Of a DNA stretch of 64,000 nucleotides, positions 3,678 through 63,687 are shown in pieces. Where the stretch lies: contig JBHLNR010000002.1 in assembly GCA_048941385.1 (NCBI GenBank), positions 1,506-65,505 on the forward strand, in the 5' to 3' direction. The position numbers and the translations under genes are program-made. The notes below the pieces were generated by a model. The model ran no database searches and was not told where the DNA came from. It was given only the letters and a program-made list of their open reading frames with translations. Positions within the stretch are counted from its first letter, which is position 1. Each line of letters opens with the position of its first letter. The stretch is from Promethearchaeota archaeon. GTDB taxonomy: Archaea > Asgardarchaeota > Lokiarchaeia > Sigyniarchaeales > SOKP01.

Positions 3678-3797
3678 TTCGGTGGGATTTTTTAAAATCT
3701 TGTTATGATATATGTGGAGAGTGGTTATAGAGGGTTAGGAGAACAAAGAAAAACTTGGTTAAAAAAAAATTGATGGAAATTAATCCTAATTAGATAC

Positions 3798-4118
3798 TTA
3801 TGCCGGTATTGCTAATCCTATTGATTCCATGGCTTCCATTGCTGTTGCCATAGTATCTATTCTACAATTCAACCCATCAACTTCCGCGTAGAGGTTTAAA
3901 ATGTTACCGGCCCGTTCATAAGCTCGTTCAAATTTACCTTCTACAACTTCAAAAACAGAGATACCTTTAATGCCATTTTTGGTTCTCATTAATCCTCCAG
4001 GGAGAATTGTTTTCATTATTGTCTCATCTTCAGGAAATTGTTCCATTACGTCAAGTGCTTTTTTTCCAACCTCCATTGATTTGCTTGCAGGAAACCATAC
4101 TGTTAATAATATATACAT
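3798..4118 (-). CDS. Hypothetical small soluble protein
   Basis: 106-aa ORF with no recognised motif. The overlapping + strand ORF 3970..4176 looks like a shadow. Confidence 0.4.
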   Translation of the reverse strand: MYILLTVWFPASKSMEVGKKALDVMEQFPEDETIMKTILPGGLMRTKNGIKGISVFEVVEGKFERAYERAGNILNLYAEVDGLNCRIDTMATAMEAMESIGLAIPA

Positions 4119-4253
4119 TTTTTCTTACCCTCCATATAAATTCTCTAACAAAATTGTAAATTTGTTAGCAAACTAAATATTGATAGTTTCCCCTTTAAAT
4201 TTTTACATTTCTTTTAAAAACTTTCAACCGTAAAAATATATAAAAACTAGTGG

Positions 4254-5750
4254 TTAACGTTGAATAAATTTCTGATATTCATGGAGTTTCTTCAATACAA
4301 CTGCAGCAATTTCAAGATTCCCCCCAAATACCATGATTTGATTTTCATCATATTTATCAAAAGTAGGATTGCCAAGACTTGGTGTTAATGAAATATATAG
4401 TATCTTTTTATCCGGATGCTCCTTACAGATTTTGATTTCTTCCTCAGCTATTTGATCAAATCCCCCACGTTGCCTAGATACCATTAATTCTTTCAATTTT
4501 TTACCAGCTTCGTTATCTGGCTTCAACAAATTTACTCTTTCGAGAAAAGTGGCGCCAGTCATCGTAAAGATTACATCAAAACAGTCAGAATTTACCATAA
4601 GGTCCATTACTTTATTGAAGGCAAAAGGGTTATTTGTAGCAACCATATCAATCGGATTATTTTGACTCCAATAGAAAGGGAGGTGTTCTGAAATATCTTT
4701 TATAAGTTTTGGTCCATTTGGCTCTAAATTTAAGTCAACTACATTTATTCCATGTTTTTCACATAAATCAGTTAAATGCACACCCATACCGCCTCCACCA
4801 CTTATAATACCTACTCGTAGAGGATCACTGTTGGGAAGTGGGAGAAGATATTGTGCTCCCTTGACTAAATAGATGAAATCAGTTACCTGTTCGGTATATA
4901 TTACACCAGTTTGTTTACAAACAGATTTGTATATATCTACTGAACCTGCGATTGAACCAGTATGACTATTAGCTGCTCTTGCACCAGTTTTAGTAATACC
5001 TGCTTTGAAAATAATAATGGGTTTTTTTTTCGTTGTTTCTGTACATAATTCCTTAAATCGTTTACCTGCCCGTAATCCTTCAGCAAATAGAGCTATTGTT
5101 TTTGTTCCCTTATCTTGAGCATAATATTGTAAATAATCTTCAAGAGTTAAAGATGCTTCATTCCCACTCGATACGAAATATCTTATCCCTTGCAACGCAC
5201 CGCATAGAATTGTACCCATTGTCCCTGATTGAGAAACTATAGAAACATTCCCAGGTTTTGGAAGCATAAACCCAAAACCTAAATGAATAGGAGAATTGTT
5301 ATCTTCTGAACTGTAGAACCCCATAGAATTTGGACCCACATAAATTAAACCTCCCTTTTCAGCTGTTTTTGCCAATTCCTTGTTTTCTTCTTGTCTTTCC
5401 TCAGTTTTTACTTCCCCAAATCCTGCTGTAATTATAGCCGCTGTCCTAACATCATTTTCTATAGCCTGTTTTACAGCATCTACCACTGCATTTGGGGGAA
5501 CCACAATTCCAACTAAATCAATCTTTTCGGGGCATTTATCGAGAGATGGAAAAACATCAAATCCTAATATCTTCCTATTTTGATATCTTGGACTTGGGTT
5601 TATTGGATAAATCTTTTTTGTAAATCCACACCCTAATAGATTGATTCCAACAAAAAAACCGATTTTTGGTTTATTAGTAGCTCCTATAATCGCAACGTTT
5701 TTAGGATTAAACATAGTTTTCATAAGATCTAATTTCTCTTCAACATCCAT
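4254..5750 (-). CDS. ADP-forming acyl-CoA synthetase, alpha-type subunit (CoA-binding plus succinyl-CoA-synthetase-alpha-like domains)
   Basis: Motifs present: NVAIIGATNKP (CoA-binding Rossmann), GPNSMG, SQSGTMG, and NSHTGSIAGS, which resembles the phosphohistidine loop of ACD/SCS alpha. No ATP-grasp beta subunit lies adjacent. Confidence 0.7.
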   Translation of the reverse strand: MDVEEKLDLMKTMFNPKNVAIIGATNKPKIGFFVGINLLGCGFTKKIYPINPSPRYQNRKILGFDVFPSLDKCPEKIDLVGIVVPPNAVVDAVKQAIENDVRTAAIITAGFGEVKTEERQEENKELAKTAEKGGLIYVGPNSMGFYSSEDNNSPIHLGFGFMLPKPGNVSIVSQSGTMGTILCGALQGIRYFVSSGNEASLTLEDYLQYYAQDKGTKTIALFAEGLRAGKRFKELCTETTKKKPIIIFKAGITKTGARAANSHTGSIAGSVDIYKSVCKQTGVIYTEQVTDFIYLVKGAQYLLPLPNSDPLRVGIISGGGGMGVHLTDLCEKHGINVVDLNLEPNGPKLIKDISEHLPFYWSQNNPIDMVATNNPFAFNKVMDLMVNSDCFDVIFTMTGATFLERVNLLKPDNEAGKKLKELMVSRQRGGFDQIAEEEIKICKEHPDKKILYISLTPSLGNPTFDKYDENQIMVFGGNLEIAAVVLKKLHEYQKFIQR

Positions 5751-39880: not shown

Positions 39881-42800
39881 TTAAAAGAAATCTCCTAGTT
39901 TGTATTGTTTAATTTTAGGATTGTTAGTTAGACTTTCTACATATTCTTCAATTAAGCCCATCCTTTGAACAGTATATTCATCTAATTTAAAATCTTCACA
40001 TAACTTTAATGCTCTTGAGATGTATTTTTCAATTCCCCCCCGATTTACAGTTAAAATTATTCTATTTCCGCATTTAGGGCATTTCCCTGCACTTGAAAGA
40101 GGAGGTCTTCTATACTTAGAATTACATTTTACACATCTAAATGTTTGTATACTAAACTTTCTTAGGTTTCCCAAAATATCTGGATTAAAATGGGTGGAAA
40201 GTATTTTTTCCGCGACTTTTTTCGCGTCAACTGCTTTAATTAGTTTTGCTAAATGTAATTGAGCGTCTATTTTTTCATCCATAGATTCATATAATTTATA
40301 TGCTGTAGTTTTAGGGCCTTCATTTACATTTCTGGTAGGGATATTAAAGCCAATGTTTTCATATTGATCCGCGGTACCTAAACGACTACTAACTAAATTC
40401 ATTATCTCTTCTATCTTTGAAGGAGAAGTATACTGTTCAGTAGCCAAATAAAATTCTAAGGGATACTGAAATGAAGTATCAACATTATGAGCTTCTGGTT
40501 CAATTTCATTTGGATCTAATAGAGTGCCTATCACTAGAGTTGCATCCATTCTCCCACCTATTTTATTTGGTAAATAATGTCGTGAAAAATTTAATAATGG
40601 ATCCAATAGAAGCATTATACCATCTTCGTCACCATCACAATTCCGTCTTTTTGAGCTATGCCAGAATGGATGAGCATAGATAGACCTAGCAGGAGTAAAT
40701 CCAATTATCCTTCCAATTATTCCTGCACTTGTATGTGGTGCTAAACCAACTACAAGATGACCAATTAAGCCTTTTGGGTCATCAACGTTATAGAAATGAC
40801 TCATATCATAAAAATATTCTAACTCGTCATCTAAGAACTTTGCAACTTTAACAAAATATTGACCACAATCATGTGAAAGTATCACATCTTGAACCTTAAG
40901 TTCAATAATTTGGTCATCAGAATGTAGTGGTTCTCCCTTATAATCGTATTTATATCCTAATTCTTTAAGTTTTTTAATGGAAGTTCCAATTTCTTCTGGT
41001 TTAAAATGTGTTAAAGGGATATCGGTAGCATCATATCTGATTTCAGCAGTCTTATAAACTAATACGTTATTTTTAGCTCTTAAAATTCCTTTTTCTAACG
41101 GTTCTGGAACTTTAAACTGATTAGTTAACCCATAAATACCCTTTAATTTCTTTGGTAATGGAATCTTTAAAGAACGCAAAATCGAATTTACGTGGTTTTT
41201 AAGATTAAAAATTGCCTCACTAGAAGCTTTTAACAGTCCATTACATTGAGGGCATCTTTCTTCATTTTTCGGTTCGCTCGGAGGGTATAATTTTTTACAT
41301 TTTTCACAAATTGATCCTAATTCGGTATGTGTGGAACATTTTGGACATATATTAAATATACTTATTGTACCACATTTTGGGCATTTCTTTCTACATATGT
41401 CTATTTTTATTTTTTGCAGTTCAAGTGCTTTTTCTACAGACCTCGAACTTCCAACTTTATCACTTAAGGGAAATAGTGTATGAACGCCCTTCATACTTTT
41501 TCTCTCAGATTTTTCTGGTCTACCCATCCGAGATCCTATGAAATGGGGTGCTTTATTCTTAATAACTATCGAAGAAATTTTAAAAAAGGCGGAAAAAATA
41601 TTATCCTCTTTTTCAAATTTTATTTCTTTTTTATTTCCAAGGTTAAATATCTCAGTATAAATAAGGTTCCTACTCTTGCGGAATAAAATCCTATCTCCCC
41701 TTATTTTATGAACAATGAATGCTTTTTCTAGAATTTTTTTAATGTCCTCCTCATAGTTTAAAACTAACTTCTTTTCTGTCGGAGAAAACCCATCCATGAA
41801 AGCATTTCTTAAAATAAAGAGTTCTTGGATTGTAAGATTTCCCCAGAAGTCTGTAAAAATAGGATGTAAAGGGATTTGATACACTCTAGATATTTTTATT
41901 GCTTCCTCAGCTGTAGGTTTAAATTTAAAAGGATTTTCTGCTAATTCCTGCAACCTGGGATCAGAGTTTTCTTTATCTTTAAGAGCTTTCTTTAATTCCA
42001 GTGCCCACCATTCTTCTACATATCCAGATGGTATCAATTTGTGGTTGTTCTCAGTAAATTCCCCAAATCCAAAAAGAATATCTCCTAAGAATAAGACTTC
42101 ATCTATCTCAGAAAATACTTTTTTCGCCATTTTATATGAAATAACTCTTATCACATTCCCATTTTTTAATTTTACAATAGGTGGTTCAATAGAACTTACA
42201 GGACAAATACTTGTGCTCTTGCCAGGTCTTTCAATTCTAAGCTGTGTACCAATTGCTACGAAATCATCTAAAATTCCCATCGCTGCCGGATGCATACCTC
42301 CAGCAGCCAAACCAGTATTTCGAGAACGCCCATATCTTATTCTATGGCCTCCTGTCTCTGAAGGATGACTAAAAACAGGTCTTCCTGCAATAATATCGGC
42401 AACGTATTTAAAATTAGGTGCAATATATGTAATACTTTCTTTCTTCTTATTTCCACTATCAAATGACCCTTCCTTAGATTCTTCTTTTTGAGCTATTTTT
42501 TTCAAATCATCAAGCCAATCCCATCCTTCTAAATTCATAGATTTTGCAATTTTCAACAGTTTGGGGGCTTTTAATAAAATTCCATCGTTTAATACCAAGC
42601 AAGCTCCACCTCTAATGTTATTTGTCTCAATTCTGGGTAAATCTCTAAAAGCAGATACTTCTTCAACCTCAGTCGAATCCCCATTAATTTCAATTGGTAA
42701 ATTTTTCACAGCATATCTAATCTCACGATTAGAAGAGGGGTACTGGAGATGAACATTTCTGTCATAAAGCTTTACCTCTTCTACATATCTTCCTATTTCT

Positions 42801-43336
42801 GCTTCAGTAGCTTCATATTTCGGAATATTTGATTTCCTTCTAACATAATCAGCAATTAGTACACATAAAGCCGCAGTTGTCCCCCCAGCAGCTCTTATTG
42901 GTCCAGCAAAAAATAAAGATAAATACTTTTTTCCAGATTGATCTGTCCGAATTAAAATTTTGGAAATCCCCTCAAGCGGAGCGCTAACTACTCCCATTGT
43001 TTTTATGGCTAATCCTGCTCTTATAGCTCTTTCTACGCGTTCTTCTAGAGAATCAATATTTCCAATTTTTTTATCTAATATGTCAGTAACAACCTTAAAA
43101 ACAATTTCATCATCATTTAATCCATTTTTTTTTAAATCTCTTATGACTTCAGCTATCCCATCTGGACCAACTAATTTTTCAACTCTTCCTGCAAGATCCT
43201 TTGCTTGTGGGCATTCTACGTATTTTTCTGGATCATATCCTTTTCTGCGTGCTTCTTCTGCAATAGAATAACAGTGATCTACTTGATTTTGAATTGAAGT
43301 GAAATATTCTTCTATTTCTTTGTTCATTTCTGTCAT
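39881..43336 (-). CDS. polD2: DNA polymerase D (Pol II) large catalytic subunit DP2
   Basis: 1151 aa, archaeal PolD size without an intein. It has multiple Cys4 zinc modules (CPKCG..CPKC, CEKC..CPQC, CVKC..CPKCG) and sits divergent from the DP1 gene. Confidence 0.95.
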   Translation of the reverse strand: MTEMNKEIEEYFTSIQNQVDHCYSIAEEARRKGYDPEKYVECPQAKDLAGRVEKLVGPDGIAEVIRDLKKNGLNDDEIVFKVVTDILDKKIGNIDSLEERVERAIRAGLAIKTMGVVSAPLEGISKILIRTDQSGKKYLSLFFAGPIRAAGGTTAALCVLIADYVRRKSNIPKYEATEAEIGRYVEEVKLYDRNVHLQYPSSNREIRYAVKNLPIEINGDSTEVEEVSAFRDLPRIETNNIRGGACLVLNDGILLKAPKLLKIAKSMNLEGWDWLDDLKKIAQKEESKEGSFDSGNKKKESITYIAPNFKYVADIIAGRPVFSHPSETGGHRIRYGRSRNTGLAAGGMHPAAMGILDDFVAIGTQLRIERPGKSTSICPVSSIEPPIVKLKNGNVIRVISYKMAKKVFSEIDEVLFLGDILFGFGEFTENNHKLIPSGYVEEWWALELKKALKDKENSDPRLQELAENPFKFKPTAEEAIKISRVYQIPLHPIFTDFWGNLTIQELFILRNAFMDGFSPTEKKLVLNYEEDIKKILEKAFIVHKIRGDRILFRKSRNLIYTEIFNLGNKKEIKFEKEDNIFSAFFKISSIVIKNKAPHFIGSRMGRPEKSERKSMKGVHTLFPLSDKVGSSRSVEKALELQKIKIDICRKKCPKCGTISIFNICPKCSTHTELGSICEKCKKLYPPSEPKNEERCPQCNGLLKASSEAIFNLKNHVNSILRSLKIPLPKKLKGIYGLTNQFKVPEPLEKGILRAKNNVLVYKTAEIRYDATDIPLTHFKPEEIGTSIKKLKELGYKYDYKGEPLHSDDQIIELKVQDVILSHDCGQYFVKVAKFLDDELEYFYDMSHFYNVDDPKGLIGHLVVGLAPHTSAGIIGRIIGFTPARSIYAHPFWHSSKRRNCDGDEDGIMLLLDPLLNFSRHYLPNKIGGRMDATLVIGTLLDPNEIEPEAHNVDTSFQYPLEFYLATEQYTSPSKIEEIMNLVSSRLGTADQYENIGFNIPTRNVNEGPKTTAYKLYESMDEKIDAQLHLAKLIKAVDAKKVAEKILSTHFNPDILGNLRKFSIQTFRCVKCNSKYRRPPLSSAGKCPKCGNRIILTVNRGGIEKYISRALKLCEDFKLDEYTVQRMGLIEEYVESLTNNPKIKQYKLGDFF

Positions 43337-43563
43337 GAGGTACCCTTTCTAAAAATTAGACATTAATTCTAAGCAATAATTTATAGATATTATAATAGAT
43401 ATTTCCTAACATAAATTAAATTCATTTATTAATCTGCTATTTTATTTATAAAGGGGATGAGAATGTTAATTTTTGACACTCTTTTGAATTAAAAGGAACT
43501 AATGTTTTTCCTTTAATAAAAAATGATTTAATTTTATTATGCAATATTTAATTAATTTCAATC

Positions 43564-45357
43564 TTGGAATGGGGTACCGTGAAAACTGAGAATATTGAAG
43601 TAAAAAAGACGATCGTAAAAAAATTAGTGAATTCAGGTATTAATATAACTCCTTCTCTTCTAGACTTTATATTAGATCTCGAAGATCCTCTTACTAAAAT
43701 AAATCTAATAATTAAAGATACATCCTTTATAGCAAGTTTTAGAAGTCATTTAACAGAAAACATTTTGGAAATGACTTCTAATGAAGAAATAAAGAAAATA
43801 ATGAAAAGAAAATTCCTTAAACAAGAAATTCGCTCAAATGAGGATAATTTAAAAGTGCAACATGAATTAGATAAACCTCAAGATAGTATTTCTGAAAAAA
43901 TTATCTCTTATTCCTCAGAAAGTACTGAAACTCCAGTTAAAAAAGCTAATCGCAACAAATCGAAAAAATTTCCCTCTATATTACAGGAATATAGCAGTTA
44001 TTCTACTCAAGAGGAACTAAACAAAAAACCCAAGGAAAAATTACTAGAAGGAACTAATTCTACCCTTACATTTAAAGCTATAGCGAAGGATTATGCTTCA
44101 CAATATGAAATTCTTAAAGATCCTACTGGAAAGTTGTATACTAATGGAGAATATAAGGATTTTTATGATCTAACCTTGGATAAGTTCAATAAACTTAGGA
44201 ATTTAATGAGGAAAAGAACAGAAGTTCACAATGCTGATAACATCAATAATATATTAAGATTGTCCAATAGAGTAGAGGTATCTGCGATTGGTCTTGTAAA
44301 TGAGATTAGAATGACTAAAAACGGATTTTATTTAATTACTTTAGAGGATCTTACTGGCCTAATCAATATAATAATTAGAAAAGATACGGAAAATCAAGAT
44401 AATGTAAAAATAGCCGAAAGAACTCTCAGTGATCAAATGCTGTATATAGAAGGTACTTATAATCCTGGTGATAAGGGTAAACCAGGTGTAATCTATGGGA
44501 ATTATATCTCAAAGATTGATACCCCACGAGATTTTGAACCAAATAAATCTAACGATCCATTATCTATAGTCTTAATTTCTGATACTCATATAGGTAGTAA
44601 AGAATTTGAAGCTAAAATATGGAAAAGATTCGTGGAATTTTTAAATGGAAAAATAGGGAATAAATCTCAGAGAGAAAGAGCTGGTAGAATTAAATATTTA
44701 GTAATAAATGGAGATCTGGTCGATGGAATTGGAGTATATCCATCACAAGAAAATGATCTTCTCATCTCTAATATATATGAGCAGTTTGGTAAAGCAGCAG
44801 AACTTCTTTCCGAAGTTCCAGAATATATTAAAATCCTTTATAGCTCAGGAAATCACGAACCAGTAAGAAATGCAATTCCTAGACCTGCTGTTCCAAAAAA
44901 ATACTCAAAAGACCTTATTGATATAGGAGTAACATGCCTAGGAAATCCCTCTCTTATTAAAACTCATGATGTAAATACACTAATTTTCCATGGCGATAGT
45001 ATTCTTGACTTGAATATGCTAATTCCGGGAATGGAAAATACTAAATCCGCTGAGACTATGAAAGAATTCTTAAAATGTAGGCATTTGGCCCCGGTCTATG
45101 GTAAAAAAACCCAGATTGCTCCCACTAATAAGGATTGGCTTGTAATTGATAAAATTCCAGATATTTTCCACACAGGTCATATCCACATTAATGATATGGA
45201 TACTTATAATAATGTAATATTGGTTAATTCAGGATGTTTTCAAAGTCAAACCGAATTTATGAATTCTTTGGGTATACACCCTACACCAGGAATTTTATCT
45301 ATTGTTGACTTAGATACCTTAAGAGGAACTCAACTAGACTTGAAAAGCAGTATGTAA
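43564..45357 (+). CDS. polD1: DNA polymerase D small subunit DP1 (Mre11-like phosphodiesterase/exonuclease)
   Basis: The C-terminal calcineurin-like PDE motifs are present (LISDTHIGS, INGDLVDG, GNHE, FHGD, GHIH), preceded by an OB-like region. The start (TTG 43564 versus GTG 43579) is uncertain. Confidence 0.9.
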   Translation: MEWGTVKTENIEVKKTIVKKLVNSGINITPSLLDFILDLEDPLTKINLIIKDTSFIASFRSHLTENILEMTSNEEIKKIMKRKFLKQEIRSNEDNLKVQHELDKPQDSISEKIISYSSESTETPVKKANRNKSKKFPSILQEYSSYSTQEELNKKPKEKLLEGTNSTLTFKAIAKDYASQYEILKDPTGKLYTNGEYKDFYDLTLDKFNKLRNLMRKRTEVHNADNINNILRLSNRVEVSAIGLVNEIRMTKNGFYLITLEDLTGLINIIIRKDTENQDNVKIAERTLSDQMLYIEGTYNPGDKGKPGVIYGNYISKIDTPRDFEPNKSNDPLSIVLISDTHIGSKEFEAKIWKRFVEFLNGKIGNKSQRERAGRIKYLVINGDLVDGIGVYPSQENDLLISNIYEQFGKAAELLSEVPEYIKILYSSGNHEPVRNAIPRPAVPKKYSKDLIDIGVTCLGNPSLIKTHDVNTLIFHGDSILDLNMLIPGMENTKSAETMKEFLKCRHLAPVYGKKTQIAPTNKDWLVIDKIPDIFHTGHIHINDMDTYNNVILVNSGCFQSQTEFMNSLGIHPTPGILSIVDLDTLRGTQLDLKSSM

Positions 45358-45396
45358 CAAATCAAATTAATAATATATAAAACATGATAATATACT

Positions 45397-46080
45397 ATGA
45401 ACTTAGCAATTCCTCGCGAAAATAATACAGAGTTACTAGTATATCTTTGGAAAATTATAGATTTACCAAACATTAAATTGAATGACCTATTATATAGAAT
45501 TTCATACGAGCTCTTTCTACTCCCTCCGGATAGGGGTAAAGATTTTATTAAAAACTGCCTTAAAGACAATTTGTTAACTGAGGATGACAATGGGAATCTT
45601 AGTTTATCCCCTTCTTTAAACGAGAGACTAATAAAATGGCAAAAAAGAAGAAAAAAAGAAATTTTGAAAAAAATGGAATCTGTTGAGAAGAAAGATCGAC
45701 TAGCCACTAGTATTGAACATGATCAAAAATCTAGCTTTAGTATTTTTATAAAATCTTTTGCTGAAAAAGGGACAATAAATAGAGCTGTAAATATATCAAA
45801 CAACGCGTTTGAGATAAAAGAGTTTGATAAGGAAAGAAATATTATAAAATCATCAGTTGTAGGTTCTAAGGAAGAATCCTATCACTTAGAGATCAATCTA
45901 GAAAATAAATTATTATTACATAATTGCCATGATTTTATAACAAGAAAGAGTAAGGTCAAACATTTTTGTAAACATCTAGTAAAATTCTTCTTACTTTTAA
46001 GAGAGAAATTTCCAATAACAGCAGAAACACTCATTAAGGATTTAGGAGACCATATAGACAAATGGGAATTTAGTTCCTAA
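45397..46080 (+). CDS. Hypothetical protein with a C-terminal SWIM-like zinc-finger motif
   Basis: 227 aa. HNCHDF-x10-FCKHLVKF resembles the SWIM signature CxCxDF...CKHI, with His replacing the first Cys. It lies between DP1 and the convergent cdc6. Confidence 0.5.
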   Translation: MNLAIPRENNTELLVYLWKIIDLPNIKLNDLLYRISYELFLLPPDRGKDFIKNCLKDNLLTEDDNGNLSLSPSLNERLIKWQKRRKKEILKKMESVEKKDRLATSIEHDQKSSFSIFIKSFAEKGTINRAVNISNNAFEIKEFDKERNIIKSSVVGSKEESYHLEINLENKLLLHNCHDFITRKSKVKHFCKHLVKFFLLLREKFPITAETLIKDLGDHIDKWEFSS

Positions 46081-47384
46081 ATTAGTTTCTTAAAGATATT
46101 GTTTTTTAATTTAACTTTATCAGTTTGCAATAATATTGGTTTATGATTTAATATTCCTTGAATTTTATCAATCTCATAAAGCGCTTTTTCAATAATATCT
46201 ATTCCAATATCAAATTTAATAATTTTAGTTCTCCCGTAGTGTCCCATTGATTTAACTTCTGCGATAATTATCCCTGCTAATGCTAACTCGTTTATATAAT
46301 CGCTAATCCTCCTTTTTGTTAATTGACGGACACCAGGAATCAATCCTTTTATTTCAGAATGAACTTCATAGATATCACCTGAAATAATTATATGATCCAG
46401 ATTAAATTTTGAGATTAGATAGATTGAAGTTAAAATCAATTGAGCTTGAAGTGGTAACCCTTTAATAAATTCCATGATATAATCTTTTTCTATATCTTCT
46501 TGAGCTTTTTCAACATACTTTGACGTCACAATTTTGCTTTGAGCTCTTTCGGCTAATTCTCCTGCCTTCCTTAGTAGTTGTAATGCTTTTCTAGCATCTC
46601 CATGTTCTTTTGCGGCTATTGCTGCACATAGAGGAATAACATCTTCCTTTAATACATGTTCATGAAAAGTAATTTTAGCTCTCTCATTTAGGATATCTCT
46701 AAGCTCACTTGCATCATATGATGGAAAAACAATATGTTCTTCTCCTAAACTAGATAAAATTCTTGGATCCAAACTATTTCTAAACTTTAATTTGTTAGAG
46801 ATCCCTATAATACTAGTTTTGCAGTTATCTAAATTCTCATTTAATCGAGTTAAATCATATAATATTTCGTTTCCACCTTTTTTGTCTACTAAAATATCTA
46901 TCTCATCTAGTACGAGGAAGCATATAGAATCCCTTACTTTAGAATCAAGCAGACCAAGTAGTTTCTTGAATATTATATCTTTAGGAAGACCCGTTGGAGG
47001 AATTTTCTCTTCCCTTGAGATTGTATTATAAATATGTGCTAAAATACGATATGGGGTGGAAACTACATTACAGTTGATATATATCCACCATGGTTTAATC
47101 TCTGAAGTTTGTTGTGCTAATTTTTGACTTACATATCGTATTGTAGCAGTTTTTCCTGTTCCAGTTTGACCATAACATAAGAAACTTGGGGGTGCGTCTC
47201 CTAATAAGGCACAAGCAGTTTTTTCTGCAATATCTTTCATCTGAACATCGCGGTGAGGTAATATTTCAGGAATATAAGATGGTTCTAATGCATTTCGATT
47301 GTTGAAAATTTTTGGGCCTTTAAGGTAATTCTTGTAGAATTTATCAATATTAAATTGATAATTATCATCATGATTCTTCAACAA
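46077..47384 (-). CDS. cdc6: Orc1/Cdc6 replication initiator (AAA+ plus winged helix)
   Basis: Walker A GQTGTGKT, Walker B LVLDEID, sensor blocks GISN and GDARKALQLL, and a C-terminal winged-helix domain. Confidence 0.9.
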   Translation of the reverse strand: MLKNHDDNYQFNIDKFYKNYLKGPKIFNNRNALEPSYIPEILPHRDVQMKDIAEKTACALLGDAPPSFLCYGQTGTGKTATIRYVSQKLAQQTSEIKPWWIYINCNVVSTPYRILAHIYNTISREEKIPPTGLPKDIIFKKLLGLLDSKVRDSICFLVLDEIDILVDKKGGNEILYDLTRLNENLDNCKTSIIGISNKLKFRNSLDPRILSSLGEEHIVFPSYDASELRDILNERAKITFHEHVLKEDVIPLCAAIAAKEHGDARKALQLLRKAGELAERAQSKIVTSKYVEKAQEDIEKDYIMEFIKGLPLQAQLILTSIYLISKFNLDHIIISGDIYEVHSEIKGLIPGVRQLTKRRISDYINELALAGIIIAEVKSMGHYGRTKIIKFDIGIDIIEKALYEIDKIQGILNHKPILLQTDKVKLKNNIFKKLI

Positions 47385-55795: not shown

Positions 55796-55951
55796 GTGGC
55801 ACCTATTGATAAAGATCTTCAAGATGAAATTAAGAAAGGCGTTTCACTCACTAAAGTTGATGAAGCTGATCTTCGCAGGAGGGAAGAAGAAAAGAAGAAA
55901 CGCATGGAAGAATTAGAAAAAGTAAAAGCAGCTTTAGGACAAAAAGAATAA
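55796..55951 (+). CDS. Unannotated 51-aa ORF with a WH2-like (actin-monomer-binding) motif
   Basis: GTG start directly after an in-frame TAA, with AGGGG 11-15 nt upstream and T-runs downstream. The product is VAPIDKDLQDEIKKGVSLTKVDEADLRRREEEKKKRMEELEKVKAALGQKE. Confidence 0.35.
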   Translation: MAPIDKDLQDEIKKGVSLTKVDEADLRRREEEKKKRMEELEKVKAALGQKE

Positions 55952-58303: not shown

Positions 58304-58927
58304 ATGAGTCCAATTATCACGCATGAGGACGAGCTTATTCTCGCCAAGTCTGAGAAAGAATTGGCTTCTCAGCTGAAAAAACTGTCTAGAGCACAAAGTT
58401 CCTTAATTAATTCCCAAATAAAGTATGCAGAAGATATTTCAAAAGCAAATGTTACAAGAGAAATGTTAAATCGAACTTTTAGAGACGTTCTAAAACAAAT
58501 GCAAACACTTGCCCGAGAACATAGATCTAACATCAAGGATGAAGAAGTGAAGTTATATCAAGAAATTATTAGGGAAAATGATGACTATATTAAAGGTAAT
58601 AACACTTATTTAAACGCAGTTAAAGATTTAGCAGTGCAAAAAGAATATTTAGTTGCGAAAAAAGATGAATTTGTAGATGCGTTATCTGATTTAGCAAGTA
58701 AACGATCTGTGGTAATTAAAAAAGCCTTAGATGTTGAAAAAGCAAAAAATAAATTAATTGATGGCGATAAATTAAATATTCTTGACCAAGAATTGAATGA
58801 TGTCCAAAGAGATTTCGATAGAGCTCGAGATATATTTCTTAAGAAAATCCATCAATTTAAAGAGGTTAGAGACGAAATAAATGCCTTATGGCTTAAGTTA
58901 AAAGAAACTATTAAGGAATTAAGCTAA
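58304..58927 (+). CDS. All-alpha coiled-coil protein, function unknown
   Basis: 207 aa with a heptad-like K/E/L-rich sequence throughout. No enzymatic motif recognised. Confidence 0.5.
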   Translation: MSPIITHEDELILAKSEKELASQLKKLSRAQSSLINSQIKYAEDISKANVTREMLNRTFRDVLKQMQTLAREHRSNIKDEEVKLYQEIIRENDDYIKGNNTYLNAVKDLAVQKEYLVAKKDEFVDALSDLASKRSVVIKKALDVEKAKNKLIDGDKLNILDQELNDVQRDFDRARDIFLKKIHQFKEVRDEINALWLKLKETIKELS

Positions 58928-59057: not shown

Positions 59058-59528
59058 ATGTGTGCAGAAGAATTCGCTTCGTTTATGGATAGTACAAGAA
59101 AAGCACCGATGGAAGAAAAACTAAATGCGTTTGGTGAAATTGTTGAAAAAATAATGCAAATTGTTTTAAAAATACCCGATCTAGTAGACCAAAGCTTGCA
59201 AGGTATTAATTCAAAGGTTTCCAATTTGCAAAATCAAATTAATGCTGTAAGTGGTGATATTAGAGCGTTAAAATCAGGTTCTGGAATAACATCAGCAGCC
59301 TCTGCACCTTCAGCAGCTACATCTGCACCGGGAGGTCCGCCTGGAGGACCACCTAGAAGTGTTCCACCTCCCCCTGGTGCTCCGCCTGGAGGACCACCTG
59401 GAGGACCACCTGGAGGACCACCTGGAGGATCTGGCCCTGCTAGACCCGCAAGTCCTGTATCTCTTAGAGGTGCAATAATGGGTGAGCTTAAACAACTGTT
59501 CGCCAAGCGGAAGGAACAATCTGGTTAA
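59058..59528 (+). CDS. Coiled-coil / polyproline / C-terminal amphipathic (WH2-like) helix protein
   Basis: 156 aa. An N-terminal helical region is followed by APGGPPGGPPRSVPPPPGAPPGGPPGGPPGGPPGG and then SLRGAIMGELKQLFAKRKEQSG at the C-terminus. Confidence 0.6.
   Translation: MCAEEFASFMDSTRKAPMEEKLNAFGEIVEKIMQIVLKIPDLVDQSLQGINSKVSNLQNQINAVSGDIRALKSGSGITSAASAPSAATSAPGGPPGGPPRSVPPPPGAPPGGPPGGPPGGPPGGSGPARPASPVSLRGAIMGELKQLFAKRKEQSG
59329..59432 (+). repeat. GC-rich tandem 12-nt coding repeat (CCTGGAGGACCA, encoding PGGP)
   Basis: About 3.5 perfect tandem units lie at 59385-59432, with a related copy at 59337-59354. This is the only strongly GC-rich patch in this part of the window, and all six frames are locally open. 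Confidence 0.8.
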
Positions 59529-59678
59529 GAAATCCATCAATACTTCAAAACCGAAGAATCTAATTGTTTGTTTAGAAAATTCCACTTTTTTTTAAATCAT
59601 TACAGATTTGTTAAAATCCAAATCTCTTCTATATTAAAAATGAGATAAAAATTTCAAATTAGGTTATAAATATTTAAC

Positions 59679-60269
59679 TCAAAATTCTAGAAAACCTGGA
59701 TCATCAAAGATATCTTCTATTTTTCTTTCTTTCTTTATTTTTGTATCGCTTTCAGCGAATAATGATTCTTCATCAGTTTTTACTCCCCTTTCAAGTTCAT
59801 CCGTTTCAAGTCTCAAAAGTGCGTCTTTCTCAAGTTTTTTATAATGTTCACTTCTCATTTTCCACTCATTTACCTCATCCAGGTTGACATCTTCTTCTTC
59901 TAGTAGTACTGCAGCTTTTGTTTTACAAAGATCTGATAAAATTGAGTAAGATAACGCAAGTTCACCCCATTCATTCTCTTCTTTTAATTTTTGAATTCGC
60001 TTCTCTAAACGTTGGAGCTCTTGATCGGCGTAATATATATCTATAAAATCTCCAAAAGCATCAACTGGTTCTGAGATAGAATTTACTAATACTTCCTTTG
60101 TCAAACCGCAGTTTCCACATTTTACTGTTGCAAAAGCACCTTTCTTCTTAATATCTGTGACTTTTACAGATTTTTCACCACACTCAGGGCAGGTAAAAAT
60201 TTTAGGTACTCTTTTAACTCTTTTTGGAGTAACTTGTTTTCTTTTCCGACGTCCCATATATAATATCAC
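59679..60269 (-). CDS. elf1: Transcription elongation factor Elf1 homologue with a ~110-aa acidic coiled-coil C-terminal extension
   Basis: Basic N-terminus MGRRKRK..PKRVKRVPKIFTCPECGEKSV...VKCGNCGL...EPVDAFGDFIDIYY matches the Elf1 zinc-ribbon core (CPxC...CxxCG...PIDVYSDWID) as I recall it. Confidence 0.7.
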   Translation of the reverse strand: MILYMGRRKRKQVTPKRVKRVPKIFTCPECGEKSVKVTDIKKKGAFATVKCGNCGLTKEVLVNSISEPVDAFGDFIDIYYADQELQRLEKRIQKLKEENEWGELALSYSILSDLCKTKAAVLLEEEDVNLDEVNEWKMRSEHYKKLEKDALLRLETDELERGVKTDEESLFAESDTKIKKERKIEDIFDDPGFLEF

Positions 60270-60385: not shown

Positions 60386-61561
60386 ATGGTTAATTACTTC
60401 AAATACTCTTTTTCACTAAAATGTTTTCAGAGTTTAAAAATAAGTGAGTGGATTTTAGGTATGGAGCATAAAGCCTTAACAATGGAAGATGACGCAAAAT
60501 TAATAGATACCATCATGGACGACATTGATATGAGATATATAGTGCTTTTCCTATACGTAATTAGAAATGATTTACTTAAGGATTTAGCTGATACTGAACT
60601 CATAGAATCTTACAACCGTATTTTATTATTAGACGAGATTTATAAAAGTAATATTGTCAAATTCTGGGAGGAAGAATTTATTGAAATTTATATTGACTTA
60701 GGATTGATTAAGAATATTCGCAGTATGAGAGAATTTAAACAAAAAGAGGATGACTTTATAGTAAAAATAGGAGAAGAAACAATAACAATTGAACACGACA
60801 CAATCTCTGTTCCGGATGATACCTTGTTCTTGATAATAAATAAGAAGTTTAAATTTTTAACGAGAAGAAATTTTAATCTAGCACTCACAAGATTAAAGGG
60901 GGTAAGATGTGAAAAGAGTAACGTTGTACACTCATTAATATACGAAATTGGAGAACATGACTATACATTAGCAAATGATTTATATTATATTTTAGATCAG
61001 TTTGGAAATATCTATCAAGTAATTAAAATAGAGATAACTATTGAAGGATTTTATCAGAGATTTAAGGAAATTGAAGAGAAGGTCAATGAATTCATAAATA
61101 TATTCGACCCGATTTTTAATACAAAACCCGCGTTAAAGAAAATTAATAATGCAATTGAAGAAAATAAAGATATTATTAACTATTTAAAAGATGAGAATGT
61201 TGAATTGTCAGATAAGTTCAATTTCGATAACATAAATAAACAAGAGCCCATTTATACTGATTGGCTTTCTAAATTAGACTATTTACTAAAAACTAGGCAT
61301 CAATTAAATGAAATAGAAAAAAAAATCCTTGAATTAAAAAACTATTATTCAGGGAAGGATAAAAAATTCAAATATCTTGAATTCATTGAAAAGGTTACCT
61401 ATAATGAAGAAGATATACTAAATAATATTCAAAAAATACTAGTTGATCTTAGAAAAGAAGTAATGAGTATTAACGATCAAATGACAGAATTAACTAAGAA
61501 AGATATAAAATTATTAAATTTGGATTTTGAAAGATTCATAATCACTAACAGCGAAGATTAA
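60386..61561 (+). CDS. Hypothetical protein (first gene of an uncharacterised operon)
   Basis: 391-aa ORF with a coiled-coil-like C-terminal third. No motif recognised. The true start may be an internal Met (MEHKALT). Confidence 0.5.
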   Translation: MVNYFKYSFSLKCFQSLKISEWILGMEHKALTMEDDAKLIDTIMDDIDMRYIVLFLYVIRNDLLKDLADTELIESYNRILLLDEIYKSNIVKFWEEEFIEIYIDLGLIKNIRSMREFKQKEDDFIVKIGEETITIEHDTISVPDDTLFLIINKKFKFLTRRNFNLALTRLKGVRCEKSNVVHSLIYEIGEHDYTLANDLYYILDQFGNIYQVIKIEITIEGFYQRFKEIEEKVNEFINIFDPIFNTKPALKKINNAIEENKDIINYLKDENVELSDKFNFDNINKQEPIYTDWLSKLDYLLKTRHQLNEIEKKILELKNYYSGKDKKFKYLEFIEKVTYNEEDILNNIQKILVDLRKEVMSINDQMTELTKKDIKLLNLDFERFIITNSED

Positions 61562-61563
61562 CC

Positions 61564-62526
61564 TTGAAGTGTCCTTCATGTAATATAGAAATGGAATCAT
61601 TGGTTGCGGGAATTTTTCAATGCCCTCAATGTAGAAAGATAGTTAAAGAGAAGGGAAAAGAAAGTGCAGCCGAAAAATCAAAAATAGAGGAAGGTGAATT
61701 TCAAGACGGTGAGTATTATCATAAAAATGCCAGTTTAAATAAACAATATGAGGTTTGTGAAAAAGGCATTACAATTAGTAAAACAGAAAATCGGCTCTTT
61801 GCAGCTTTAATTTGCCATAGTGGTTATCTGAAAGAAGAAAAATACGTAAGGTTGTCCTGGTGGAAAAATTTGCAACATGCCGGTATGTTAAAAGTCTACG
61901 ATAAAGAGGTTCTTAACAATACTATTATTGCTTTAGAGAAAATCGATGAAACTTTTGATGAAATTTGGAATTGGAGTGGAAATTATGGAAAAAAAGAAAC
62001 AAAATCAAAGGAAGATTTAGAAAAAGAAAAAATGCTAGAAATTATCAAATATAGGATTATCGAAAATAAAACCTGCCCAAAATGTGGGAAGAAGATGGAC
62101 AAAATGAAGTCGCATTATGAGTGTCAACATTGTGGAGAAATAGTAATATTAGAAGGATATAATCAACCAATCTTCAATATCCCATCAAACGAACTTGATC
62201 TAGGATTTCATGGAAATTTCCCTATTAACTTCTACTTCCCCGTAAGTGGGATAACAGTAAAATGGCTGATGGGAGAATGGAAAGCTTTAGTAGTAATTTA
62301 CTCAAAAGATAATCCCAACAGAAAATGGCTAAGATTTTACTGGTGGGTACGAGATCTTAGCAATATTTTAAGGTATGGACAAAGAGAAATGGGGGAAGGT
62401 ACTCAAATGGGGTGGAAAACCCAAAAAGGTGTATCCTCTCCGAATATTTATGACAAAAAGGTAATAAAACCCTTAATTAGTGCTCTGAAAAAAATTTCAA
62501 AAGAATTAAACTGGGAATTAAATTAA
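61564..62526 (+). CDS. Hypothetical protein with an internal duplication: two zinc-ribbon plus WW-containing-domain modules
   Basis: CPSC..CPQC and CPKC..CQHC ribbons are each followed by a K[YW][VL]R[LF]xWW ... YDK.V......AL.KI......NW domain. The TTG start is 3 nt after the upstream stop. Confidence 0.55.
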   Translation: MKCPSCNIEMESLVAGIFQCPQCRKIVKEKGKESAAEKSKIEEGEFQDGEYYHKNASLNKQYEVCEKGITISKTENRLFAALICHSGYLKEEKYVRLSWWKNLQHAGMLKVYDKEVLNNTIIALEKIDETFDEIWNWSGNYGKKETKSKEDLEKEKMLEIIKYRIIENKTCPKCGKKMDKMKSHYECQHCGEIVILEGYNQPIFNIPSNELDLGFHGNFPINFYFPVSGITVKWLMGEWKALVVIYSKDNPNRKWLRFYWWVRDLSNILRYGQREMGEGTQMGWKTQKGVSSPNIYDKKVIKPLISALKKISKELNWELN

Positions 62527-62547
62527 TATAAAAATCGAGAAAAAACA

Positions 62548-63687
62548 ATGGGAGAAATTCAAGATACTACCTGGAAAACAATACTGAGTGATTTTGAAAA
62601 TGGCCTCGAAAAAGCCATTGAAGAATTACAAAAACGAGATGTAGAAAACATTCCAGGTGCTAAAGAGGCACTCATTCAAAGACTTAATGATATGAAACTT
62701 CACTTTCCAAGAAATGATGGGGAAATCTTTATACAATCAATAAATGAGAAAATACAAAACGCATTTTTCCCTAATACTAAAAATTATTCTGAAGCATTTG
62801 AAAAAATTCTAAAATCAAGAACTCATGAGCAAGATTTCATAATAAATGAATTACTGAATGGATTTGTAACTTCCAAAGCTAAAGTTATCGCCTCCGACTC
62901 TCAAGGACCAATAATAGATAGAATGGTGGAAGCATTCAGTAAAAGAAATGATTTTCATATTGTTGATCATCAATTTTTCGCAATGTTTGGCAACCCAAAT
63001 AAACCTAGGCATTACATTCAAAAGCAACTTGAAGAATTAGTGAAAATGTTTGGGCTTATATCAAAAGAACTTGTAATTGAAAAAGATGTAAGAAGGAGCG
63101 AGGAAAAAGTATATACATTTTATACCTTCCCGCCTGAAATAATAAAAATTCTTGAAGAAAAATATCTGATTATAGATGAGGAATTAGGGTATGCTTATGT
63201 CTCAGAAGAATTTGATAGAAATGTGTTTATGTGCATGTTTTTAGCTAATGTTGCCATCTATCGTGATGATCTCGATAAAATAGGAGGATCATATACAATT
63301 AATGGTATTTCAGCTATTTTTGCTTTAATATTGTTATTAAGTTTCATGCCTAAATTATCTGTAGATGAGACAAATCCGATTTTAAATGACCCCACTTTTA
63401 AAGCAGAGAATATGAGTGTTATTCCGAAATCATGGATGATAAAACAAGTTTTAGAACCTTTATTTGAACCCCTCATTAAAATTGTGGCATATAGAGTAGG
63501 GGGAGGTTTATGGTTCTCAAAAATAGTGGATTCTGAAATCAATAAAAGAATCCATAATCAGATAAGATTTCTCCTTAAGGATGTAAATAAATGGATTTTA
63601 GGGAATTTATGTAGAGTAGAGATACCAATTTTTGTAGAAATCTCCAACATCTTCACTGAGGTTTTAGTAGGATATGATGAGGAGTGA
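62548..63687 (+). CDS. Hypothetical protein
   Basis: 379-aa ORF, 21 nt after the previous gene. It has one hydrophobic segment (ISAIFALILLLSF). No motif recognised. Confidence 0.5.
   Translation: MGEIQDTTWKTILSDFENGLEKAIEELQKRDVENIPGAKEALIQRLNDMKLHFPRNDGEIFIQSINEKIQNAFFPNTKNYSEAFEKILKSRTHEQDFIINELLNGFVTSKAKVIASDSQGPIIDRMVEAFSKRNDFHIVDHQFFAMFGNPNKPRHYIQKQLEELVKMFGLISKELVIEKDVRRSEEKVYTFYTFPPEIIKILEEKYLIIDEELGYAYVSEEFDRNVFMCMFLANVAIYRDDLDKIGGSYTINGISAIFALILLLSFMPKLSVDETNPILNDPTFKAENMSVIPKSWMIKQVLEPLFEPLIKIVAYRVGGGLWFSKIVDSEINKRIHNQIRFLLKDVNKWILGNLCRVEIPIFVEISNIFTEVLVGYDEE

Follow-up and report, generated by a model that had tools for sequence, protein, structure and literature searches.

The stretch examined here, called the window throughout, comprises 64,000 nucleotides (nt) of contig JBHLNR010000002.1 from a Promethearchaeota archaeon (assembly GCA_048941385.1, positions 1,506 to 65,505). 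Towards its downstream end lies a gene for a protein of 156 amino acids (aa), from an uncharacterised family for which this analysis found members in Asgard archaea alone. The protein joins a conserved helical domain at its N-terminus (the N-domain) to a disordered, proline-rich linker and a short, strongly conserved helix at its C-terminus (the C-helix). The reading favoured below, at a probability of roughly 40%, is that of an oligomeric coiled-coil adaptor whose flexible polyproline arms each terminate in a docking helix, most likely acting at the interface between actin and membrane. Its features, taken from open reading frames (ORFs), alignments and an AlphaFold2 (AF2) model with its per-residue confidence (pLDDT), are as follows.

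59058..59528, forward strand: coding sequence of the 156-aa protein, ATG start, stop codon included (ORF list and sequence)
59058..59282, forward strand: N-terminal conserved helical domain, aa 1-75 (AF2, close-family alignment, N-domain profile)
59283..59453, forward strand: disordered Ala/Ser/Gly/Pro linker, aa 76-132 (AF2 pLDDT <50)
59325-59435, forward strand: Pro/Gly tract, aa 90-126, inside the linker, with APGGPPGGPPRSVPPPPGAPPGGPPGGPPGGPPGG at aa 90-124
59385..59429, forward strand: perfect 12-nt tandem repeat, CCTGGAGGACCA x 3.8 (Tandem Repeats Finder, 100% matches, score 90)
59454..59525, forward strand: C-terminal helix, aa 133-156 (AF2 helix 133-155; family alignments)
59466-59513, forward strand: core motif of the C-helix, R137-K152, RGAIMGELKQLFAKRK (family alignments)

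This ORF is a real gene with a layout beyond chance. A preliminary description of the locus had given a 156-aa translation, identical to that of the ORF at 59058..59528 on the forward strand, and had located the C-terminal sequence SLRGAIMGELKQLFAKRKEQSG at aa 135-156 (nt 59460-59525), where it indeed lies. Homologues share an M(C)AEEF start. About 27 nt upstream of the ATG, the AT-rich TTATAATT reads as promoter-like, and runs of T follow the stop codons of both this gene and its upstream gene; these two features suggest that the gene constitutes its own transcription unit. The antisense ORFs that cover the Pro tract (59234-59506 and 59310-59585) are, judging from their sequence, by-products of the composition of the tract.

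A homology search returned 196 homologues, all about 135-190 aa in length and all annotated as 'hypothetical protein' in Asgard metagenome-assembled genomes (MAGs). Identity ranges from 49 to 79% among the 120 homologues listed of the 196, and every one of these 120 carries the C-helix motif at its C-terminal end. When one genome per species is scanned with alignment A1 as the query, the diverse alignment A3 being too variable for that scan, relatives are found encoded in at least 125 species-level genomes; all but one of the 125 are labelled Promethearchaeota/Asgard or unclassified archaeon. In the literature searched, no paper describes this family or any other Asgard protein that combines polyproline with such a helix.

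The layout of the protein persists down to 19-30% identity. An alignment of 29 sequences contains two nearly invariant blocks, M(C)AEEFxxFxxxxxKAPxEEKLNxFGDIVEKIMxIVLKIPDLVD at the N-terminus and RPxxPxSLRGAIMxELKxLFxKR at the C-terminus, and the linker between them, in which a segment RPASP just N-terminal to the helix is conserved, has Pro runs in every case. Compared with 1.84e9 representative proteins, the N-domain profile gives 98 matches. About half of these are small proteins of 110-180 aa that retain the full layout at only 19-45% identity; in these the N-domain is followed by a Pro run, often a lone PPPPP or PPPSP, and by a helix close to the C-terminus. The three-part architecture set out in the preliminary description is conserved well beyond close relatives and is common to all full-length members.

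For the monomer, AF2 with the 29-sequence alignment predicts a helix at residues 2-15 followed by a long helix at 18-74, with pLDDT of about 90 over aa 20-70 and disorder in the linker over aa 76-127. Sixteen columns of the N-domain are invariant in the close family. The earlier impression of a helical, heptad-like N-terminus is borne out by the long predicted helix and by a clean a/d heptad that can be read in residues 47-71 (L47, I50, V54, L57, I61, V64, I68 and L71). The best PDB and Pfam similarities of the N-domain, all of them sub-threshold, are almost all to parallel trimeric coiled coils: Lpp, reovirus sigma-1, trimeric autotransporter adhesins, heptad-repeat (HR) regions of viral fusion proteins including spike, and P10/PEP_C. 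Because these nearest similarities are parallel trimers, the second half of the N-domain probably forms a heptad coiled coil and a trimeric stalk. A Foldseek search with the model of the whole protein gave 0 matches, as expected for one long helix followed by disorder. The N-domain was also considered as HSPC300/BRICK1 or another part of the WAVE complex; the BRICK1 match (E=0.48) stands amid generic coiled coils and is noise.

The proline-rich arm differs in composition from the rest of the window. The Pro/Gly tract has 67.6% G+C vs 31% for the window, and PPPP is present in only 2 of the 175 stop-to-stop ORFs of the window. Across the family a Pro run is kept in a linker of varying length; among the 120 close homologues listed, PPPP occurs in 112, PPPPP in 100 and [GASLI]PPPPP in 95. 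Several distant members, P0125, P0164, P0170 and P0184, contain two or three GAPPPPPG units. The window's protein itself has only VPPPPG, together with GPPGG repeats; native Pro peptides of the family include GAPPPPPGAPP in homologues and SVPPPPGAPPGGPP in this protein. Since 59385-59429 is a perfect 12-nt repeat, the GGPP units of this allele are a recent slippage expansion; a Pro tract at the same position is ancient. Runs of the [GAS]PPPPP type are the classical profilin-binding consensus of FH1, VASP and WASP. At the level of sequence, the suggestion of a profilin-type tract in the preliminary description is sustained for the close homologues listed, most of which have [GASLI]PPPPP, and is weaker for the window's protein, with its PPPP. 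Among Asgard profilins, that of Heimdall LC3 and a Thor profilin show weak binding to a VASP polyproline peptide, and no native ligand is yet known (PMC8410842).

Within the family, nothing is conserved as strongly as the C-helix. AF2 places it at 133-155 with pLDDT of 65-79, and across 45 diverse members its motif is [RK]xx[ILV][MIL]xEL[KR]x[LM][FL]x[KR][RK]. E143 is the only invariant column of the whole protein in these members, L144 is kept in more than 90%, and further positions of the helix show a strong preference for R/K, I, M, K, L and F; the conservation on which the preliminary description had staked its reading of the helix is thus present. A regular expression for the motif, run over 658,000 aa of six-frame ORFs (95 loci and the window), matches family members only.

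What this helix is called is another matter. The preliminary description had aligned RGAIMGELKQ with RGALLDQIRQ of WASP and had read the helix as WH2-like, and the layout as that of a nucleation-promoting factor (NPF) such as WASP or WAVE. It had also pointed to a second WH2-like ORF 3 kb upstream, whose family and profile provide a comparison.

55796..55951, forward strand: 51-aa micro-ORF with a WH2-like motif, between a GNAT gene and Pelota (profile vs PDB, peptide scoring)

The hydrophobic positions i, i+1 and i+4 of a WH2-type helix correspond to I140-M141-x-x-L144, and [ILV][MILVN]xE[LI] is found in 45/45 diverse members; this pattern is generic for amphipathic helices. The LKK[VT]-type box that should follow is absent from all 45, the chain continuing as KQLFAKRKEQSG and then ending. 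A relaxed WH2 regular expression matches 0/45 diverse members vs 13/23 of the 51-aa ORF family. Neither 29 full-length members (E<=5) nor the C-terminal 30-mers of 45 members (E<=10) match Pfam WH2 or Thymosin, with the proviso that HMMER filters may hide weak matches. Against PDB sequences, the C-helix profile gives 8 noise matches and zero WH2-bearing chains. Scored without filters on five genuine WH2 peptides from N-WASP and MIM, taken from the PDB alignments of the 51-aa ORF profile and shuffled 300 times each, it reaches <=-1.4 bits, within the range of the peptides' own shuffles. The likeness to WASP also dissolves in the wider family: the RGA of RGAIM belongs to the close subfamily only (G in 18/45 and A in 24/45 diverse members), and the invariant E143 occupies a position that is variable in WH2 and has no WH2 counterpart. 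By these comparisons the C-helix is not a WH2 domain, contrary to the earlier identification.

The NPF assignment fares no better. A WASP/WAVE-type NPF requires, besides WH2, a central (C) region and an acidic, Trp-containing tail, which binds the Arp2/3 complex. Neither an acidic run nor a Trp is found near the C-terminus of the 156-aa protein or its homologues; the tail is basic and ends 8 residues past the motif, as FAKRKEQSG. Because there is no central or acidic region, an NPF of the WH2-central-acidic (WCA) type is excluded, as far as sequence can tell. Two other motif readings of the helix were considered on pattern and set aside: the ESCRT-III motif MIM1, which has Arg where this helix has Glu, and the PIP-box that binds PCNA, there being no Qxx[ILM]xx[FY][FY].

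The 51-aa ORF, by comparison, passes the WH2 profile test, as the preliminary description had supposed. Counting the window, 67 of 96 searched sequences retain it, as 60 distinct sequences with the consensus MAPxDKELQxEIKKGVSLQKVDExELKKREEEKKKRMEELEKVKxALGxK. Its motif, L8xxxI12KKG15VxL18xK20V21 (LQxEIKKGVSLxKV), has exactly the spacing of WH2, and the LxKV box becomes LAPP or LNPV in some lineages. The top PDB match of its profile is the tandem WH2 of N-WASP (E=4.3e-4), with three repeats in register, and its just 8 matches also include MIM WH2 and another N-WASP chain; single WH2 chains reach only E=0.3-0.4. On the five WH2 peptides the profile scores 9-13 bits, which exceeds every one of the 300 shuffles of each. 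The Pfam WH2 model does not report the ORF. Thus WH2-likeness is detectable in this very locus, and the negative outcome for the 156-aa helix is therefore informative; of the two, the 51-aa ORF appears to be the better fit to WH2. No free-standing Asgard WH2 or beta-thymosin-like protein was found in the literature searched.

A link of the family to actin comes from paralogues of its N-domain. Several multidomain Asgard proteins (P0219, P0138, P0153, P0220 and one at 3762-4562 of locus L088) contain the N-domain together with a Rab-like GTPase, one or two gelsolin domains and a C-terminal zinc finger of the form FPYPYxFKPPEPPDD...CxxC. P0138 gives E=2.5e-16 against the N-domain profile and E=9e-11 against the Loki two-domain gelsolin 2DGel (7WHG), and its gene lies beside two genes of the Arf/Ras family. 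P0153 matches the Thor gelsolin 7C2F at E=4.5e-4. In P0219, a longer member of the 90% cluster of P0138, the order is Rab-like GTPase, gelsolin, N-domain, gelsolin and zinc finger, and the GTPase part matches Rab43/Rab8 at E=2e-30. Ras-family domains are also found in P0146, P0213 and P0163 and leucine-rich repeats (LRRs) in P0196 and P0199; in P0199 and P0213 the C-helix motif is internal and followed by LRR or GTPase domains. The N-domain is thus a reusable module, and its fusion to gelsolin domains and Rab-like GTPases in paralogues supports a connection of the family with actin. Asgard actin regulation has so far been ascribed to profilins and gelsolins only; co-immunoprecipitation with the Lokiactin of L. 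ossiferum enriched a profilin, five gelsolin-homology proteins and, significantly, an Arf GTPase, and detected two BAR-domain proteins, not significantly (bioRxiv 10.1101/2025.11.30.690169).

Two neighbouring genes accompany the 156-aa gene.

58304..58927, forward strand: 207-aa all-helical, BAR-domain-like protein, conserved upstream partner (AF2 and Foldseek)
59679..60269, reverse strand: Elf1-type zinc-ribbon protein of 196 aa, convergent downstream neighbour (Pfam Zn_ribbon_Elf1 E=1.2e-18)

Among about 80 close loci, the 207-aa gene lies directly upstream wherever the locus reaches far enough in that direction, and it is still adjacent, in convergent orientation, in the rearranged distant loci L089 and L090 (35% identity). 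Its product, likewise named 'hypothetical protein', has 537 homologues, with 79-92% identity among those listed, and is more conserved than the 156-aa protein itself. The AF2 model (pLDDT 90.4) consists of three helices of 53-71 residues (7-71, 79-149 and 154-206). Almost all of its top Foldseek matches are BAR domains, namely arfaptin (TM-score 0.63-0.72), SNX1/5, BIN2, IRSp53, Lsp1 and FCHO2, at E-values of only 6e-3 to 8e-2. Pfam gives FCH alone at a sub-threshold E=0.0024, and none of the homologues has a recorded Pfam domain. The neighbour is BAR-domain-like by the predicted fold of its monomer.

In the window and roughly half of the close loci, the Elf1 gene is the immediate neighbour; the other close loci have an intervening gene for about 575 aa (L001 8659-10410, L002 8567-10303, L086 8879-10600). 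This gene is without a Pfam match and represents a presence/absence polymorphism in an otherwise rigid block, being absent from the window between 59528 and 59679. In L091 and L092, a distant family member also has an Elf1 homologue as its direct upstream neighbour. The Elf1-type protein (in the window and at 7240-7857 of L091) has, in addition, an acidic coiled-coil extension of about 115 aa, which terminates in a conserved ...IEDIFDDPGFLEF, or IEDILGDTGFLEF in the distant genome, and looks like another tethered terminal motif. The single genome with a label other than Asgard or unclassified archaeon is represented by a 62-kb contig deposited as 'Candidatus Nanopelagicaceae bacterium' (L078, DATKTW010000134.1). 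It holds the entire Asgard block of 51-aa ORF, BAR-like gene, 156-aa homologue, ~575-aa gene and Elf1, and is very probably mis-binned. MAGs labelled Odin, Thor, Hod and Hermod in one deposit series show a common synteny at 50-65% identity, and their labels may be unreliable too.

The favoured explanation, an adaptor with tethered arms, would work as follows. The N-domain (aa 1-75) would form a parallel coiled-coil stalk, probably a trimer, from which each chain would extend a flexible Ala/Ser/Gly/Pro arm prone to the polyproline II conformation and bearing, in most members, one to three [GAS]PPPPP runs. The arm would terminate in a helix of about 20 residues that docks onto a conserved protein partner. 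The polyproline runs are natural candidate ligands of Asgard profilins, and the terminal helix would bind actin or some other component of the machinery, for example a small GTPase or the BAR-like protein encoded next to it. In this way the oligomer would concentrate partners and hand them over, as the arms of Ena/VASP or formin FH1 do. A protein partner is favoured over lipid because one Glu is invariant and its neighbours nearly so, because the charge of the tail varies from -2 to +5 and is sometimes acidic, and because the motif is internal in some paralogues. The interface of actin and membrane is the likeliest site on account of the gelsolin and Rab-like fusions, the BAR-like partner, the WH2-like micro-ORF and the profilin-type Pro runs. 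The gene, its conservation, the anatomy in three parts, the difference of the helix from WH2, the domain fusions and the neighbourhood are observed directly; from these lines we infer the oligomeric state, the docking to protein rather than lipid, and any role with profilin or actin. A more specific version is distinctly tentative: a minimal Asgard actin-assembly factor, in which a trimer would recruit profilin-actin with its polyproline arms, bind actin through a non-WH2 helix, and work with the BAR-like protein alongside the WH2 micro-protein.

Several observations weigh against the adaptor. The longest Pro run of the window's protein is PPPP, and much of its tract is the recent GGPP repeat. 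According to reports as cited in one study, Loki and Odin profilins are without VASP polyproline binding (PMC8410842). The trimer is drawn from sub-threshold similarities, and the AF2 model of the protein is that of a monomer only. The terminal helix has no direct link to actin here, the WH2 tests being negative, and LRR and Zn-ribbon modules, too, occur as fusion partners of the N-domain, so that its fusions point beyond actin. The rest of the syntenic block is of a housekeeping kind (Pelota, radical SAM, GNAT, CutA, Elf1 and a nucleotidyltransferase), adjacency within the close group may simply be inherited, and in the distant loci L094 and L095 the adjacent genes include neither the BAR-like gene nor Elf1.

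Other explanations differ mainly in what the C-helix would do. The strongest rival, itself doubtful and already raised as an alternative in the preliminary description, makes it a membrane-targeting helix of the MinD/FtsA type, with the coiled coil shaping membrane together with the BAR-like protein and the Pro tract acting as a spacer. In its favour, the helix stands at the C-terminus behind a flexible linker and has a hydrophobic face (L136/I140/M141/L144/L147/F148) and a KRK tail; tails of the family have a median charge of +2, and the partner gene is BAR-like. The best 11-mer hydrophobic moment of 0.45-0.9 lies within the range of MinD and FtsA tails, a measure that does not discriminate protein-docking from membrane helices. 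However, membrane helices usually keep a pattern rather than residue identity, and here E143 is invariant and six other positions are nearly so. Some tails are neutral or acidic, down to -2, the motif lies inside the chain of P0199 and P0213, and conserved [GAS]PPPPP runs exceed the needs of a spacer. Docking onto a partner other than actin is unlikely, and two candidates can be named: a GTPase or the neighbouring Elf1-like factor. The archaeal ribosomal stalk protein aP1 recruits GTPases through a C-terminal LxxLF helix, carried by a flexible hinge on a helical base; the 156-aa protein has the same overall layout, and its L144-x-x-L147-F148 reads as LxxLF. Fusion of the N-domain to Ras/Rab-like GTPases, the persistence of Elf1 adjacency in a distant genome and the presence of Pelota in the block agree with this possibility. 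Yet the stalk tail is acidic and its motif stands at the extreme C-terminus, whereas the tail here is basic; the fused GTPases are of the Ras/Rab type and not translational; in L089, L094 and L095 the gene does not have Elf1 as a neighbour; and no sequence model joins the two families.

Nor need the helix leave its own molecule. It could fold back on the N-domain, in cis or within the oligomer, to give a six-helix bundle or an autoinhibited state, or the protein could be a self-assembling fibrous element like baculovirus P10, and this seems quite unlikely. The N-domain and C-helix are the two conserved blocks and stay together even where further domains follow (P0199, P0213), PDB similarities include viral fusion coiled coils of the HR1/HR2 type, and some N-C column pairs score high in a mutual-information scan with an effective number of sequences (Neff) of about 54 and no phylogenetic control. 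The recurrent Pfam matches, Baculo_PEP_C in 22/29 members (best E=5.9e-5) and NPV_P10 in 9/29, are far below gathering scores (16.8 vs 38 bits for PEP_C) and cover only the heptad region, and the AF2 monomer (predicted TM-score 0.30) places the helices relative to each other without confidence. The original proposal, a divergent WH2 that binds G-actin in a WASP/WAVE/WIP-like NPF with profilin on the Pro tract, is now very unlikely. It draws on the order of Pro-rich region and helix seen in WASP and WIP, the fit of I140-M141-xx-L144 to the LLxxI of the WH2 helix, the gelsolin fusions of the N-domain, and the family's apparent restriction to Asgard archaea, which alone among prokaryotes are known to have eukaryote-like actin, profilin and gelsolin. 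It founders on the missing L[KR][KR][VT] box in the 45 diverse members and on Pfam, PDB-profile and peptide-scoring results, of which the latter two tests are positive for the 51-aa ORF, as well as on the Glu fixed at a position variable in WH2 and the lack of a central region or acidic tail. Moreover, we know of no complete Arp2/3 complex in Asgard archaea.

Elsewhere in the window, the Elf1 gene is followed at 60386-63687 on the forward strand by three conserved genes of unassigned function, encoding 391 aa, 320 aa with two zinc ribbons, and 379 aa. Their order is retained in distant relatives, where a gene for 423-438 aa comes next and then, if the locus is long enough (L086/L087), an AAA ATPase; the set may constitute an uncharacterised system. 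Pfam, PDB-sequence and NCBI names are uninformative for the 391-aa and 379-aa products, as they are for the 207-aa and ~575-aa neighbours. Further upstream, the large (39881-43336, reverse strand) and small (43564-45357, forward strand) subunits of DNA polymerase D are encoded divergently, close to Orc1/Cdc6 (46077-47384, reverse strand), and 39881-47384 may be the neighbourhood of a replication origin.

No Asgard nucleator, elongation factor or native polyproline ligand has been described so far, and it is disputed whether regulation through profilin and polyproline is older than eukaryotes. The present family supplies abundant native candidates, with its [GAS]PPPPP runs, invariant terminal peptide, gelsolin and Rab fusions and BAR-like neighbour. 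The 156-aa protein is small and easily expressed, and the question of an Asgard polyproline ligand or assembly factor is thus directly testable. Were it an actin-assembly factor, filament elongation through profilin and polyproline and its coupling to membrane curvature would predate eukaryotes. Should its partner not be actin, it would still rank among the better conserved uncharacterised Asgard-specific proteins, with a reusable N-domain.

Among known systems, Ena/VASP, which comprises EVH1, profilin-binding polyproline, a WH2-like G-actin-binding motif, an F-actin-binding motif and a coiled coil, offers a close parallel in design: a coiled coil for oligomerisation is joined to flexible arms that bear [GAS]PPPPP-type runs and a short amphipathic helix, with a shared logic of multivalent capture and hand-over. 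No homology was detected, however, and the family has no Pfam match to EVH1/WH1 or VASP tetramerisation domains. Its coil is N-terminal and trimer-like whereas that of VASP is C-terminal and tetramerising, and its helix lacks an LKK[VT]/LRKV box and fails the WH2 profile tests. With WH2 proteins (PF02205) such as WASP, WAVE and WIP it shares a Pro-rich region before a helix and hydrophobic residues at i, i+1 and i+4 after a basic residue, but has no LKK[VT] box, central or acidic region or model match, and possesses an invariant Glu instead. Asgard two-domain gelsolins contain the WH2-like motifs LKDV, LVDV and LRRV (PMC9433394; bioRxiv 10.1101/2025.11.30.690169). They occur in the same organisms, and the N-domain of the family is fused to gelsolin domains of this kind; their LKKT-like boxes lie between gelsolin domains, in contrast to the 156-aa protein, which has neither box nor gelsolin domain.

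The pairing of a BAR-like module with a Pro-rich module that ends in a helix recalls MIM/ABBA, IRSp53 and F-BAR/N-WASP. Here the modules reside in two adjacent genes, BAR is assigned by predicted fold only, and the helix is not WH2. Baculovirus P10 and PEP_C (PF05531, PF04513) provide the only recurrent Pfam similarities of the family, and P10 consists of a coiled coil, a Pro-rich region and a basic tail. These proteins are viral, their scores are sub-gathering and limited to the heptad region, and the C-terminal motif is not common to both. A short conserved C-helix behind a disordered linker on an oligomeric base is also found in the membrane-targeting sequences of MinD and FtsA, the aP1 tail and the C-terminal peptide of FtsZ; in the 156-aa family the helix conserves residue identity and not pattern alone, and the tail is basic, unlike that of aP1. 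By analogy, the protein is best filed not as a member of the WH2, WASP or VASP families but under the tethered-peptide design that is represented by Ena/VASP, formin FH1, the ribosomal stalk and FtsZ tails.

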